Assembly (NCBI GenBank): GCA_963702005.1
Contig: OY969696.1
Span: forward strand, 3,936,001-4,000,000
Origin: Candidatus Aminicenantes bacterium
GTDB taxonomy: Bacteria > Acidobacteriota > Aminicenantia > Aminicenantales > JAFGBC01
DNA length: 64,000 nt
Reading direction: 5' to 3'
Numbering within the stretch: position 1 is the first letter of the stretch; each line of letters opens with the position of its first letter. Made by a program: the position numbers and the translations under genes. Shown piece by piece: positions 35,611 through 42,063 of this stretch. The notes under the pieces are model-generated. The model saw nothing but the letters and a program-made list of their open reading frames with translations, ran no database searches and was not told the origin of the DNA.

Positions 35611-37710
35611 TCACCGTATAACGATCTCGACCATGCCGAGCTTTTCCAGGAACTTTATGTAATTTTCGACCTCGACGACCGGGATCGGTTCGTACTCCGC
35701 CGAGACGGCGTCCCGGATCTCGAGGATCGACCGCTTCCCGTCGATGAAATTGCGGGCCTCGAACTCGCCCTCGCCAAGGTTGTACTTGGGAAGGTCCTTC
35801 CGCCCCCGGATCTTGTCCCCGAGCCGCCAGAAATCGAGGATCGTGCCCATCTTGGCCGTCCGGCGCGGCACGAGCCCCGCCAGCCGCGTTTCGTCTTTGG
35901 TCGGAGAGGGCAGCACGGCCGGCTTAACCTTGAGGGCGGCGCAGCGCCTCGCAAAAACGCCCTCGAGGTCCTGGAGAAACGGCCCCTCGATTTCAGCGAA
36001 GGCTTCGACCTTCTTCTGGAGGGCCGCTTCGGCGGAGGCGTTTCCCTTGGCGAAGAAGCGGATGGATGCCAGAGCGTCCTTCTCCCTGGCCACGGACTGA
36101 CGGACGACGTTCAAGGCTTCCTTATGAGCGGCGGCAACGTCCTTGGCGCCGGCCGCGGCGATCATCCGCTCGGCCCTGAGCCTCTCCTTCCCGATTCGTG
36201 CCGAAGCCCGCGCCTGAACCTCGCCCGCGATCCGGTCGACATCCTCGGGGCCGGCGTTGGCCAGGAACAGGGCGGCCGCCGCTCCCAAAATCCCGACCCG
36301 CTTGAGCTGGGTCGAGTCGGACTTGTCGGGGGTATCGCCGCTGGTGTGATACCACATGTCGGGCCAGACGATGAACATGACCGCGGGGACGCGAACGCCG
36401 CCGTCGATAAACACGACGTGATCGCTCCCGCCCGTGAAGCGGCTCACGGAGCAGTAGAACGGATCCCGCGTCCCGGTCGGGGAGGCGATCAGATACGGCA
36501 CCCCCCAGGTCTCGGTCGAGTTCCTCTGAGTCAAGCCCATCCACTCGACGAAGGACTCGACGACGTCGCCCAGGTAGCTGGGGATCGAATAAGGCGACCG
36601 TTCGAGATAGAACGTGCCGTTGTTCTTAACGATGGCCTCGCCGACCATGTCCTCGTTGATGTTGGCGAAAAAGCGGCGGGCGACATCGGGATACTTCTTG
36701 ATGTAGGCGGCCGTCCCGTCGATCTCGGGCACCATCAGGAAGCGGACCGAACGGCGCAGGGGCGGGATAAGGCCTTTTTCGGTCAGCGTCTTGAGGGCCC
36801 GGGCCGTCTCGAGGATGGCGACGCAGCCGCTGACGTCGTCGTTGGCGCCCTGCTTGGCGAAGCCCTCAAAGAGGTGGGCCGTGAAGACGAGCTCCTCGTC
36901 GGGACGGTCCTTCCCCTTGAGGACGGCCTCGACCATTTCTTCCTTGTAGGGGACCATCCGGGTTTTGACCGAGGCCTTGAGCACGATCTTGACGCCGCGC
37001 TCGAGCTGGTCGCGGAGCTCCTGGCCGGTTCGCTGGGAGACCATGAATCCGAAGGTCTTGGCGGCCTTTTCGGAATTATCGATATGGCCCCAGCCGACCT
37101 CGTCCTGGTCGAATTCGGGATGGGACGAGGAAAAGCCGACCAGGCCGACCGCCCCGTATTTCTCGACGGCCAGCCTCTGGGCCCGTCCGGGCGAGCCGTT
37201 GACGAGGGCGATTTTTCCCTTGAGCTTTTTCCCCTGGTAGCCCTCGGCCTGCCAGCCGGGGCCGACGTAGACGAGCTCGGCCGTGACCTCGGCCGAGGAG
37301 CTGCCCGGGCAGATGGAGGCAGCGATCTCCTTGAGGTCCGCGATTTTCTCCTTGGAGGGCTCGATCATCACAAGCTCGGCCGACTCGGCGTCCCAGGTCT
37401 CCTTGTCCTCGGTCGGAAGGTCGACGATGGCCGCATCCTTGATCCCGTATTCCTTGAGCCTGTCAATGAGGAAGCTGGTCTCGAAGTAGCCCTTGAAGTA
37501 TTCATCGGGCTTCCGGTTGCGGTTGACCCCGCTCAGATAGATCTCGTTCTGGAGGGCCAGGTCTCCCGACACCTCGAGGATGATCGAATCCAGGACGTCG
37601 AGGGAGAGGAGGGCGGGCGGGACATCGCTCCTCTGCTGGGCCGGGACGGGAACCGCGAACGCGGCGATGAGAAGAAGAATGAGGCCGGGGCCGAAGACCT
37701 TCCGATTCAT
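35611..37710 (-). CDS. Secreted M28 family peptidase with PA domain (DUF4910-like)
   Basis: TAHL, GANDDVSG, PEIDG, NEDMVG, GSDH, YHTSGD. Confidence 0.88.
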   Translation of the reverse strand: MNRKVFGPGLILLLIAAFAVPVPAQQRSDVPPALLSLDVLDSIILEVSGDLALQNEIYLSGVNRNRKPDEYFKGYFETSFLIDRLKEYGIKDAAIVDLPTEDKETWDAESAELVMIEPSKEKIADLKEIAASICPGSSSAEVTAELVYVGPGWQAEGYQGKKLKGKIALVNGSPGRAQRLAVEKYGAVGLVGFSSSHPEFDQDEVGWGHIDNSEKAAKTFGFMVSQRTGQELRDQLERGVKIVLKASVKTRMVPYKEEMVEAVLKGKDRPDEELVFTAHLFEGFAKQGANDDVSGCVAILETARALKTLTEKGLIPPLRRSVRFLMVPEIDGTAAYIKKYPDVARRFFANINEDMVGEAIVKNNGTFYLERSPYSIPSYLGDVVESFVEWMGLTQRNSTETWGVPYLIASPTGTRDPFYCSVSRFTGGSDHVVFIDGGVRVPAVMFIVWPDMWYHTSGDTPDKSDSTQLKRVGILGAAAALFLANAGPEDVDRIAGEVQARASARIGKERLRAERMIAAAGAKDVAAAHKEALNVVRQSVAREKDALASIRFFAKGNASAEAALQKKVEAFAEIEGPFLQDLEGVFARRCAALKVKPAVLPSPTKDETRLAGLVPRRTAKMGTILDFWRLGDKIRGRKDLPKYNLGEGEFEARNFIDGKRSILEIRDAVSAEYEPIPVVEVENYIKFLEKLGMVEIVIR

Positions 37711-37779: not shown

Positions 37780-39822
37780 TCACAGTTGCTTTCTGATAAC
37801 GCCTCCCCCATCCAATCCGAGATAAAGGATTTTTTGGGCTTCATTATAGGCTAGGCTCATGCATTCCCTCAAGGAAATATCGGCATAACTAATGCTGTCC
37901 CATGTCTTCCCCCGGTCCTTGCTTACCTGAACCTCATTCCCTCCGACGATGATCTCCCCATGCGAGCTCTTGGAGATAAACATGGCATGGGCAGGCTGCG
38001 TTAGAAGCTTTTTCCAGCCGGCCCCGCCGTTCCCGCTCTTATAGAATCCGCCGTAGCCGCAGCAGAGATAAATGTTGTTTGTATTCAGAGGATCGATTTT
38101 CATATCATCGATGTCGTCGAAGTCACCGGCCTTTGTGTTTCCCCAGCTGGATCCGCCGTCGATGCTTTTGACGAGTTTGCAGCGATTCGAGGCGTAATCC
38201 AAATAGCCCATGTAAATAACCTTTTCGCGGACGGGATCTACGGCAATGGCCCGGGCATAGGAATCGGCCGAATTCGCCCGGACCGTCGTCCAGGTCGCCC
38301 CGCCGTCCTTGGAAAAAAATAGAGCCAAAGCGTTATATGAGCCTTGAGGCCCGCTGGCCGGGACCATCCCCGCGCAAAAAATATGTTCGGGATTCCGGGC
38401 AGACCGGTAAAGATCCTGCAAAGTCCCGGATTTGAGCTGCTTGAAAGTCCTTCCTCCATCTACAGACCTGTAGATGCCGTCGCCCGCTCAGCCCCCGGAC
38501 AGGACAATGACATCCTTGGCGTTCGTGGGATGGACCGCGATCTTGAAGTATCCGCCGCAGTTGCTGAGCTCGGTCAGGCGCTCCCAAGATTTTCCGCCGT
38601 TCGGCGTCTTAAAAAAACCAAGTTGGCGGGCTTGGGCATAGAGAATATCGGGGGCGGAGGGAGCCGCCGCAACCGCGGGGATGACGGACTCTCGGATTCC
38701 GGAATGAGCGGCCCGCCATAAGAGCCCCCCGTTAGTGCTCCGAAAAACGCCTCCGAGCGATCCGAAAAAGACCGTTTGTCCAGGATTCGGTCCTTTATCG
38801 ATGACGAGCATTTTCAAGCATTCCCCGTAAACGCCGGAGGACCGGACCCAAGCGACGCCGCCGTCCGAGCTTTTTGAAACGGAATTGTCGAAGTCCGCTC
38901 CGGCATAAAGAATATCGGGATTCGAGCCGTCGACGGCAAGGTCGCCGGCATCGAAGCTGGTCGCGGTTGTCTGCCAAGTCAATCCGCCGTCCTGGCTTCT
39001 CTCGACGCCGAGGCCGGTTGCCACCCAAACCCGATTCGAGTCGCCGGGATGAACGACAATGGAGTACGCAGAATAACGATCATCCCAGGGCAAAATACGC
39101 CAATCTTCTCCTCCGTTTGTGGATTTGAAGATCCCATACTTCGCCGTATGCGGCCCGATGCCGTAATAGCCGTCAATATATAGAACGTTAGGGCTGGAGA
39201 GGCTCATGGCGAATCCCATGGTATCGCCATAGTAGGATCCCTTGCTGACGAGATGGGTCTTCCAGGTTTTTCCGCCATCGACGGATTTAAAAAAAGCGAT
39301 GCCCTCCCGCCAGGGATTCGAGCGGTAATCATAATTTCCTGAAGCATAAATAATATTCGAATTCGAGGGATGAACGAAGACCTTGCCCAAGCGTCCGCTC
39401 CTGCCGGCTCCAAGAGAATAACGCTGCCAACAGGGTTGCCCGCGTTCATGCGCGTCCGCCTCTTCGGCGCCGGTCAGCGATATATAAAAGCCCATCTCGC
39501 CCAACGCATAGGCGATTTTGGGGTTTTTCGGATTCAGCGCAAAATCATAAATCGTATCCGGGATCGAGGAGACCTTGGACCAGGTCCCCCCTCCATCGAG
39601 AGTTTTATAGACCGTTACCGAATATTCTCCGACAACGGCATAGACGACCTTCGGCTTGGCGGGATGGTAGGCCAAAGAATGGACTCGCCCCCCCTCCGGT
39701 CCGGCGCCGACCCAAGGACTCGAGGAGGATGACCTCGATTGCAGGGAAGCCGCCGTGATCGCAAATCCCAAGACTATCAGGACAACCCCCTTCTTGGGGA
39801 TTGGCTTGACTTCCATGGTCAT
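37780..39822 (-). CDS. Secreted BNR/Asp-box beta-propeller protein with in-frame TGA (probable Sec445), 680 aa
   Basis: ORFs 38488-39822 and 37780-38421 are in the same frame. Read-through gives VLSGG-TGA-AGDGIYRSVDGGRTFKQ, and S.DGG.TW repeats occur on both sides. Confidence 0.8.
38457..38476 (-). promoter_or_regulatory. Bacterial SECIS-like hairpin
   Basis: UGA + 11 nt + CAUCUACA-GGUC-UGUAGAUG (perfect 8-bp stem, G-first loop). Confidence 0.78.
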
Positions 39823-40602: not shown

Positions 40603-42063
40603 TTAACGGTACCGCCGGGCGAGTTCCGCCGCGGACGTTCCGGCGGCGATGAGCTCGGCCGCTCGGGCCGTGAATACCCACTCCTCGAAGAGCTTGTCGA
40701 GGTTGATTTCAGACCTTTTTTTTATGAAGTCGACGAATTGCCGGGCCGTAGCGCCCGTGTCGAAATAACCGCGATAGAAATCTCCGATCGTTTCCAGGAA
40801 TGCTTCTTCCCCCAGCGTCCGGTACAGAAGATAGAAGAAGACCTGACCCATGCGGTAGGAAAGATCCGTCAATTGTTTGACCCCGTAATCGATCATCGGG
40901 GTCTCTTTCCAGCCGGGATGCTCGCGAAATGTTTCGGCCATCCGGACGAGCGATTCGCCGACCGCTTTCTCGACAGCCCCATTGTTGTCCTCCAGCTTTT
41001 CCTGAACGAAGTGCTGGAGAAACATGGCCAGCCCCTCGCTCTCGAAACGGGGAGGAAGGGGATCCTTGGCTTCCACGTTCCAGAGGTGGGAAAGTTCATG
41101 ATAGAACGAGTAACGGCCGGAGGGGTTCTTGAACGCGCCGGCCTCCTGGATGATAGCGGCGACATCGGCTTGGGAGCCGAAGCCGTCCGGAATCTCGATG
41201 ACGGTCAACCCCCGAAAAACCTTGAGCGGTCCGAACCAACGGGAGTAGAGTTCCATCGTCCTCGTCAGGCTCGCGAGGAGCTCTCCCGCCCCCTTGACAT
41301 CCTCGGGAAAAGCGAATATCCGGAGTCGTCCCCCCTCCCCTTCAAGGATGGTGTATTTCGAAACGGCCAGGTCAATGCGCCAGGACGGGACTTTGTCTCG
41401 GTAGACCCAAGTCGTCCGGCCGTCTTTGTCCTCCTTCGAGATCAAATCTCCGCCGTTGGCGACGACGAGCGAGGAGGGAACCGTAAGCGAAACCCGATAT
41501 CCGAAATCATCCAGGCCCTGGGCCCGGTTCGTCAGCCAGGAGGGGACCCCGATCTGCGGAAAAGCGTAGCTGTCCGAGCGGATCAAGGTCAGCTCCCGGC
41601 TGACGCGGTCCTTAACGTATCGCATCGCTTCGGCGTAGCCCAGAAGGAGCCCGCCATACCGAATCCGGAGCGTGGCCTGTTTCCCCGGTCCGAGGAGCGG
41701 ATCGATTCTGACCCGAATGTGGTTGACCTGCAATTCCCTCCAGTCCTCGAAGATCTTGACGTTCTGGGTAAACTCGAGTGGGGTCCCCTTTTCGTCCGTC
41801 ACCGAGGAAACCTCCATGAGGCGGTAGAGATTCAGGGGAATGACCGAGATGGGCTGATCGCCGCCGTTCTTCACGGTCAATGAGCAATCGCCGGCGATGG
41901 CGCCCGATTCGAAGTCAATGTCGATCTTGAGGTCGTAGTAAAGCGGCTTGGGAAGGACCGCGATGTCTTCGGTTGGAGAGAAGCCCAAAGCCGGCGCCGG
42001 TCGCGGACATGCCGCTATAAGGAGGCCGGACAAACATGCGAGGAGAGACAGCCGTTTTTGCAT
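40603..42063 (-). CDS. Secreted M1-like (gluzincin) aminopeptidase
   Basis: YHELSHLW...ESEGLA; YDLKIDID N-terminal domain. Confidence 0.82.
   Translation of the reverse strand: MQKRLSLLACLSGLLIAACPRPAPALGFSPTEDIAVLPKPLYYDLKIDIDFESGAIAGDCSLTVKNGGDQPISVIPLNLYRLMEVSSVTDEKGTPLEFTQNVKIFEDWRELQVNHIRVRIDPLLGPGKQATLRIRYGGLLLGYAEAMRYVKDRVSRELTLIRSDSYAFPQIGVPSWLTNRAQGLDDFGYRVSLTVPSSLVVANGGDLISKEDKDGRTTWVYRDKVPSWRIDLAVSKYTILEGEGGRLRIFAFPEDVKGAGELLASLTRTMELYSRWFGPLKVFRGLTVIEIPDGFGSQADVAAIIQEAGAFKNPSGRYSFYHELSHLWNVEAKDPLPPRFESEGLAMFLQHFVQEKLEDNNGAVEKAVGESLVRMAETFREHPGWKETPMIDYGVKQLTDLSYRMGQVFFYLLYRTLGEEAFLETIGDFYRGYFDTGATARQFVDFIKKRSEINLDKLFEEWVFTARAAELIAAGTSAAELARRYR

Follow-up and report, generated by a model that had tools for sequence, protein, structure and literature searches.

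In the fdhF gene of Escherichia coli K-12, the selenocysteine insertion sequence (SECIS) is an element lying inside the open reading frame (ORF): the TGA is followed, after 11 nucleotides (nt), by GGTTGCAGGTCTGCACC, i.e., by the hairpin that is bound by SelB. In general, a bacterial SECIS (bSECIS) is a conserved stem-loop found soon after the UGA and carrying G/U in its apical loop. As for proteins, the GH74 xyloglucanases and oligoxyloglucan cellobiohydrolases (Protein Data Bank (PDB) entries 5fkt, 2cn3, 4lgn, and 1sqj) are tandem seven-bladed Asp-box propellers devoid of selenocysteine (Sec, U), whereas the exported UxxC thiol:disulfide oxidoreductases of the PF13098 type are extracytoplasmic proteins in which Sec is paired with Cys. 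The gene analyzed in this work recalls these systems in different respects. It is located in a stretch of 64,000 nt (referred to as the window; contig OY969696.1, positions 3,936,001 to 4,000,000) of the genome of a Candidatus Aminicenantes bacterium (G000), a single contig of 4,309,361 bases that is 94% complete by marker genes, and it encodes a predicted beta-propeller whose reading frame is interrupted by one UGA. The evidence reported below strongly supports the idea that this apparent stop, at which the gene is split, is a genuine Sec codon.

The interrupted gene and its hairpin

The whole gene (37780-39822, on the minus strand, as are all the features of the window mentioned below) consists of 680 codons and a terminal TGA stop. 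An earlier note on this DNA, made from the sequence, had read two neighboring ORFs as a single frame broken by one TGA, and this is the arrangement found: the upstream ORF (38488-39822) encodes 444 amino acids and is terminated by the TGA at 38490-38488, beyond which the frame remains open until the stop at 37782-37780, so that read-through gives 680 residues with the UGA as residue 445 (U445). The sequence at the junction is ...VIVLSGG-U-AGDGIYRSVDGGRTF..., and Cys422 (C422; codon TGC, 38559-38557), the candidate partner of U445 proposed in the same note, stands where it had been placed, 23 residues ahead of U445. A separate downstream ORF would have a TTG as its sole start, at 38421 and 66 nt past the TGA, as had also been noticed. 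At the other end, the basic and hydrophobic segment MTMEVKPIPKKGVVLIVLGFAITAASLQ... (39721-39822) is, by its sequence, a probable signal peptide or membrane anchor; the AlphaFold2 model assigns a low confidence and a short helix to this N-terminus, and most of the aligned paralogues start with MKK or MKR followed by hydrophobic residues. The product is therefore described here as probably exported via a signal peptide or anchored.

The protein signal continues across the TGA. The Pfam profile Sortilin-Vps10 (PF15902) matches with 98.3 bits (gathering cut-off 33), its best stretch (residues 359-486) crossing the TGA; PF02012 is also above threshold (38.5 bits, cut-off 27), and the NCBIfam model NF045728 (F510_1955 family glycosylhydrolase) reaches 166.7 bits, i.e., under its curated cut-off of 175. 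In the paralogue alignment, the invariant Gly, Trp, and Ser of the Asp-boxes are kept up to the C-terminus, including the 235 codons after the TGA. For two pairs of paralogues (L035/L036 and L050/L051, respectively), the ratio between nonsynonymous and synonymous substitution rates (dN/dS) is 0.27 and 0.31 after the TGA and 0.26 and 0.48 before it; on these ratios, the segment following the TGA is under purifying selection. The possibility of an assembly error, which the earlier note had raised, was checked in contigs from two public wetland-metagenome runs (possibly from the same source sample) that span the TGA, and the codon is unchanged in them.

A SECIS-like hairpin, CAUCUACA-GGUC-UGUAGAUG (CATCTACA-GGTC-TGTAGATG in its DNA form), occupies positions 38476-38457. 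It is 20 nt long, with eight perfect base pairs (bp) and the loop at 38465-38468; the spacer between the TGA and the hairpin is of exactly 11 nt (38487-38477), in agreement with the earlier reading, and the GGUC loop begins 19 nt past the UGA. The arms of the hairpin of the window gene are CAUCUACA and UGUAGAUG, not GGTGGGGTC. The whole element falls within the I-Y-R-S-V-D-G codons of the Asp-box that follows U445. Its likeness to the fdhF SECIS, pointed out in the earlier note, was verified in the K-12 sequence: both are elements internal to the ORF with the hairpin starting 11 nt after the UGA, the 8-mer CAGGTCTG is common to them, and the apex CAGGUCUG and the GGUC loop, closed by C-A/U-G, are identical and lie at similar distances from the UGA (loop onset at 18 nt in fdhF and at 19 nt in the window gene). 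Given this matching apex, E. coli may be a suitable host for testing the recoding. Unlike its E. coli counterpart, the propeller SECIS encodes a protein repeat motif, and the protein that hosts it is unrelated to formate dehydrogenase.

The same hairpin, (C)RTCTACA-GGTC-TGTAGAY(G) or a close variant, follows all the 14 in-frame TGAs of the family in this genome. Covariation was analyzed in an alignment of 24 distinct copies, drawn from G000 and from other genomes. The spacer that separates the hairpin from the TGA measures 11 nt in 15 of them, 14 nt in eight, and 17 nt in one, and the onset of the GGUC loop varies between 19 and 25 nt after the UGA, so that a conserved stem-loop with G/U in its apical loop lies shortly after the UGA in these copies, as in bSECIS elements. 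Paired cells account for 98.4% of the hairpin alignment, with a G-U pair in one copy, and two of the eight pairs show compensatory changes: at pair 2, six copies have A-U instead of the G-C of the other 18, a Val-to-Ile codon change being offset by a synonymous change in the Asp codon, and at pair 6, two copies have U-A (TTC...GAA) instead of the A-U of the other 22. The covariation score was not matched by any of 500 column shuffles, and when the partner arm was slid by one to three columns, only 16-53% of the cells were paired.

The element is also specific to the region after the UGA. Among the 93 Asp-box-like motifs of nine paralogues, the GGUC hairpin written as TAC-AGG-TCT-GTA-GAY occurs in just three, namely those after the UGA; the same peptide at other Asp-boxes (e.g., YRSVNAG and YRSTDGG) is written with CGC/AGC and without such a hairpin, and five further motifs make unrelated stems of 8-9 bp. 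Across the whole genome, AGGTCT-type loops closed by a stem of 6 bp or more were searched for, and of the 43 hairpins disclosed, 13 are in the propeller family. These comparisons indicate that the hairpin is conserved as an RNA element under selection. Since the codons of the V/I-Y-R-S-V-D Asp-box make up the hairpin, the stretch serves as a protein motif and as an RNA signal at the same time.

Recurrence of the UGA and the selenocysteine machinery

The earlier note had proposed to look for the TGA and the hairpin, or for a Cys, at the U445 column of related genes. The tblastn search of the read-through protein against G000 retrieved 20 full-length paralogue models (28-36% identity), and 13 of them have exactly one in-frame stop, which is always a TGA and always in the U445 column. 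A 14th TGA copy, L054 (G000:C1:755500-758324), is broken, its tblastn match being split at about residue 285/301, and it retains both the TGA and the hairpin. The remaining seven full-length paralogues are free of stops. In the six that were aligned, the column is occupied by Cys in one (L043, GQ-C-GYSGLYISRDGG) and by Ser, Asp, Thr, or Pro in the others; in the seventh, L053, which is outside the alignment, tblastn places an Ile beside a three-residue gap. Sec and non-Sec forms are intermingled in the maximum-likelihood tree, where well-supported branches require no fewer than three changes between them: the Cys form L043 is the sister of two Sec paralogues (support 100/100), and a Ser form is nested within a Sec clade (support 99/98). 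As far as the tree goes, this is the usual picture of Sec swapped for other residues. The paralogue L068:1079-3086 (G000:C1:1976578-1978585) has no TGA, and its frame changes exactly in the Sec loop (...VIYVMFD / FWGADPFYRSKDGG), owing either to a frameshift that made it a pseudogene or to a sequencing error.

A relative at E<=1e-30 is present in seven of the 41 genomes of the same order. The genome of the same genus (G001) harbors five matches with one TGA, the column and the hairpin being confirmed for three of them, and a genome of another family (G040) carries the TGA and the hairpin at the U445 column. Stop-free forms are found in G002, G003, and G011. Genome G016, from another genus, harbors a homologue without stops and a second one, L028 (G016:C11:1149059-1153582), with two TGAs at query positions 120 and 158 and without the GGUC hairpin, which is probably a pseudogene. 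In the same 41 genomes, selA is over the cut-off in 18, including all three with the TGA form (G000 counted). A phylum-wide protein search, in which two candidates were scored per genome and whose sensitivity was low, gave a match at E<=1e-40 in three of 401 genomes.

A DNA pattern consisting of the hairpin, 10-18 nt, and TCARCC was then searched for in larger collections. In the collection of species genomes it disclosed nine stretches, all of them within homologous genes having the stop at column 444-447; according to the contig titles, seven belong to Candidatus Aminicenantes, one to an "uncultured bacterium", and one to an "uncultured Eubacteriales". The last one, L059 (CAZJXZ010000002.1), comes from a metagenome-assembled genome labelled "uncultured Eubacteriales bacterium" and is an Aminicenantes-type gene with the TGA and the hairpin; the conflict with the label could be due to mis-binning, a wrong label, or gene transfer. 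In metagenomes the pattern was found on at least 80 contigs, at no fewer than 86 sites, and among the matches listed all the 86 sites correspond to a '*' at query column 443-449 in tblastn alignments of 25-62% identity. As to protein records, 1302 proteins of the collection match residues 330-560 at E<=1e-10. Six of the best 120 of these end exactly at the U445 column, among them the 442-residue piece of the window gene itself and three relatives of 441-445 residues with 70-76% identity. The expectation that annotation pipelines would split this gene was thus correct, the collection storing pieces of 441-445 residues that end in ...LSGG.

The genome of this bacterium encodes the whole Sec machinery, whose presence the earlier note had set as a check. 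The genes selA (561.7 bits, cut-off 267.9), selD (364.6 bits, cut-off 125), and selB (best stretch 255.3 bits, or 288.1 bits when neighboring stretches are included; cut-off 242.25), together with a tRNA-Sec with anticodon UCA (73.8 bits with the Rfam model; tRNA-SeC according to ARAGORN), are arranged in one row, selA-selD-selB-tRNA-Sec, forming an operon at G000 765451-770102. This operon is embedded in a cluster of paralogues, being flanked by six Sec-propeller copies, one of which is broken (sel island, G000:C1:755500-783500, loci L054, L035-L039, and L067, outside the window). Four copies, including the broken one, are located at 756153-764679 on the minus strand and are followed by the sel operon on the plus strand. 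Beyond the operon, a gene for a FAD amine-oxidase-like protein precedes a Sec paralogue; the next gene encodes an AhpC-TSA/TlpA-like domain fused to DUF6029, after which two further TlpA-like proteins are encoded on either side of a Fer4_5 polyferredoxin, and the gene of an OmpW-like barrel separates them from another Sec paralogue, which ends at 782771. The three TlpA-like proteins possess WCVPC or WCGPC motifs and N-terminal hydrophobic segments. Their location amid the Sec paralogues is the reason why a thioredoxin-dependent recycling of a selenenylsulfide is proposed below.

FdhA and SelD are the two most common bacterial selenoproteins. In G000, a Sec-type FdhA was not found (best match 59.4 bits, no stops) and selD has no in-frame stop; therefore, the commonest selenoproteins do not explain the retention of the Sec machinery. 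A non-exhaustive screen of TGAs filtered by hairpins gave 31 candidates, including two genes for exported proteins with a thioredoxin fold and TPR repeats, in which a TGA stands at the first Cys of the CxxC motif (...SG-U-GSC...) and is followed by a hairpin: L151:150-1859 (G000:C1:1013349-1015058, plus strand) and L152:170-1693 (G000:C1:2162569-2164092, minus strand). Both proteins match Pfam Thioredoxin_7 and Thioredoxin_2, and gene callers would split both genes, which are probable selenoproteins of an already listed type, since exported thioredoxin-fold selenoproteins of the PF13098 type appear in Table 1 of PMC13188914. The two genes provide a positive control within the genome. Their hairpins, ACUGCUG-G(G)UC-CAGCAGU, have the GUC/GGUC apex 17-18 nt past the UGA, and given this similar apex the propeller hairpin fits what the SelB of this organism evidently reads. 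The propeller differs from the PF13098-type proteins in its fold and in the absence of a UxxC motif, Sec and Cys being 23 residues apart in separate loops. A second screen, based on coding potential, yielded 66 candidates, of which five were BNR copies and the majority were neighboring genes that share a frame; in this non-exhaustive screen, judged by eye, no other selenoprotein stood out. On the basis of these two non-exhaustive screens, the propellers would represent 13 of at least 15 selenoprotein genes in G000.

Fold, candidate redox partner, and competing explanations

The AlphaFold2 model obtained with the paralogue alignment has a mean predicted local distance difference test score of 88.2 and a predicted template modeling (TM) score of 0.87. 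In Foldseek, the model comes closest to GH74 xyloglucanases (5fkt, 2cn3, 4lgn, and others; E ~1e-29, TM-score ~0.6), and the same enzymes are the top profile matches (E 4e-40), which leads to the conclusion that the fold is a tandem seven-bladed Asp-box propeller. Together with the Pfam matches, this bears out the BNR beta-propeller identity suggested by the earlier note. The identity with the GH74 enzymes is 14-18%, and there is no match to a GH74-specific family. The titles of PDB entries among the GH74 structural matches name D60A and D465N mutants, and the catalytic Asp pair of GH74 consists of one Asp in the first blade of each propeller. No conserved Asp is present at the corresponding 'YAxxxxG' positions of the paralogue alignment A1, and the GH74 'YARADIGG' aligns to a non-acidic stretch, the blades being out of register and giving no residue-level mapping of U445 onto the GH74 active site. 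Because the presumed catalytic positions show no conserved Asp, the protein is not filed here as a GH74 enzyme.

In the model, strand 438-442 precedes U445 and strand 448-453 follows it, the Asp-box coming immediately after U445; C422 is located just before strand 425-430. According to PMC2716378, the conserved bottom face of the propeller holds the Asp-box, in the loop 3-4, and the variable, functional top face is made up of the loop 2-3 together with the N-terminal ends of the inner strands. With this topology, U445 and C422 would be neighbors on the functional face. A Cys occurs at positions -28 to -19 in 69 of the 94 distinct Sec sites, and in 54 it is exactly at -23; in 21 of the other 25 sites a Cys is found at most 38 residues downstream, in the same-face loop that connects to the next blade. 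In the alignment of the paralogues of this genome, the upstream Cys is present in nine of the 13 Sec forms and in none of the six non-Sec forms. The pairing between C422 and U445 advanced in the earlier note is only partly supported: the Cys is conserved along with Sec, and the topology would put both on the same face. The partner Cys is not universal, four of the 94 sites having none nearby.

According to the sequence evidence, the gene is intact and the UGA at 38490-38488 is decoded as Sec by SelB and tRNA-Sec, the signal being the hairpin that begins 11 nt downstream and carries the GGUC apex. The mechanism that we infer for the protein would be the following. U445 would lie on the variable top face, in the loop 2-3 of a blade belonging to the C-terminal propeller, and would form a redox-active selenenylsulfide with the Cys of a neighboring top-face loop, i.e., C422 in this protein and, in one subgroup, a Cys about 23 residues downstream of Sec instead. 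The Sec-Cys center might be reduced again by the exported TlpA-like thioredoxins encoded, with the membrane polyferredoxin, beside the sel operon.

Several observations, besides the four sites without a nearby Cys, weigh against this explanation. The folding energy of the 71-nt region is ordinary (z -0.57, with 51 of 200 shuffles as good), for which reason the case for the hairpin rests on the comparison among copies, and no Rfam model matches positions 38300-38600 at E values up to 10. The bulged U in the upper stem, important for the E. coli SelB, is missing from all the 24 copies, whose stem is a continuous helix of 8-10 bp. Cys homologues are usually plentiful for selenoproteins, and here Cys is scarce, being found at the U445 column in one of the six aligned non-Sec paralogues. 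Among the best 120 of the 1302 matching proteins, 67 have a gap at the column and two a doubtful Cys; given these gaps, the Sec forms are taken as a distinct subfamily with an extended G-G-U-G-x-D-D loop that is truncated by gene callers. Lastly, TlpA or polyferredoxin genes adjoin just two of the 13 Sec paralogues, and none was found within 40 kb of the window gene, which is flanked by a gene for an M28-family peptidase (35611-37710; Peptidase_M28, E 1.6e-16) starting 70 nt downstream, and possibly co-transcribed with it, and by a weak M1-like peptidase gene (40603-42063), both with signal-like N-termini.

These points have to be weighed together with other possible explanations. A pseudogene, with a TGA due to nonsense mutation or to an error of assembly, is hardly credible: a single in-frame stop is typical of a fresh pseudogene, and decayed copies do exist (L054 in pieces and L068 frameshifted), but the same TGA column recurs in 14 copies of this genome and, elsewhere, in the nine stretches and the 86 or more metagenomic sites, whose 25-62% protein identity excludes one repeated contaminant sequence, and both the purifying selection after the TGA and the unchanged codon in the public runs speak against decay. 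It is extremely improbable that the UGA is a true stop, that the 444-residue protein is the sole product, and that the hairpin affects termination, pausing, or the stability of the mRNA. As the efficiency of Sec insertion is usually low, a truncated product, which is exactly the one predicted by gene callers, probably coexists with the full one; nevertheless, the 235 codons after the TGA keep in frame the propeller repeats and the invariant Asp-box residues with a dN/dS of 0.27-0.31, the second propeller of the model would be incomplete without them, and the downstream ORF has no start other than its TTG, 66 nt past the TGA. Very improbable, too, is the insertion of one of the standard amino acids (Trp, Cys, or Gly) at the UGA, through near-cognate decoding stimulated by the hairpin or through local recoding. 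Downstream structures stimulate read-through in other systems, but here a complete Sec operon lies inside the paralogue cluster, the apex equals the one bound by SelB in fdhF, and TGA is an ordinary stop in this genome, including at the end of the selenoprotein gene itself. Moreover, a UGA at the active-site Cys of a CxxC motif is a classic Sec signature, and it is found, with a similar hairpin, in the thioredoxin-fold genes.

A different kind of alternative accepts the insertion of Sec and assigns it another role, i.e., that of a metal or metalloid ligand or of a hydrolase nucleophile in the cleft between the two propellers, with no Sec-Cys couple. The glycosidase fold shared with GH74, the Sec sites devoid of a nearby Cys, and the location of the window gene beside peptidase rather than thioredoxin genes would agree with it; on the other side stand the co-occurrence of Sec, in 90 of the 94 sites, with a Cys located either upstream or downstream on the top face, the TlpA-like reductases within the sel island, and the lack of a conserved Asp at the presumed GH74 catalytic positions. 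This role is unlikely, even if it is the most serious of the alternatives. The Sec insertion suggested by the earlier note is supported by the sel operon, by the TGA column common to paralogues and homologues with its hairpin, by covariation, and by purifying selection. The explanation as a whole, i.e., an intact Sec gene with an fdhF-like SECIS, belonging to a family of probably exported propellers with the redox mechanism proposed above, is considered highly probable.

Place among known selenoproteins

Nearly all the selenoproteins known from bacteria are redox enzymes of the cytoplasm, and most of these have a thioredoxin fold or metal cofactors. Neither BNR nor VPS10-like propellers were known to the earlier note as selenoproteins, and the inventories agree with it: no propeller family is included among the 119 prokaryotic selenoprotein families and subfamilies in Table 1 of PMC13188914 (a review of May 2026), and a look-up by terms disclosed no BNR, sortilin, WD40, xyloglucan, or related selenoprotein entry in its text. 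In deep-Sep and BSepDB, as far as a look-up by terms covers these resources, no propeller family is present, and none of the selenoprotein models of NCBIfam release 20 matches the window protein. Nor was a propeller selenoprotein found in the full-text literature searches made under BNR, Asp-box, VPS10, Ycf48, or Aminicenantes. Judging from these sources and from the sequences described above, a large family of Asp-box propeller selenoproteins, so far unlisted, apparently exists in uncultured bacteria of sediments and wetlands.

A broader proposal can tentatively be put forward, to which we would give slightly less than an even chance: exported Asp-box propellers might be a widespread unlisted class of selenoproteins, making up 13 of the at least 15 of G000 and constituting a selenium-dependent redox or catalytic system of the cell surface, for which the Sec trait would chiefly be kept. 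The clustering of the sel operon with propellers, TlpA-like thioredoxins, a polyferredoxin, and outer-membrane barrels is relevant in this respect. If the proposal is true, the scaffold supporting selenium chemistry at the cell surface would be one that has hitherto been known only in glycosidases and sorting receptors. An exported, GH74-like Sec propeller with 13 paralogues would broaden both the chemistry and the cell locations in which selenium is used, would enlarge the selenoproteome of anoxic sediments and wetlands by a large family of environmental origin, and would correct a systematic mis-annotation, the genes being stored as fragments of 441-445 residues. The gene is, moreover, a clear example of a SECIS contained in a protein repeat motif.

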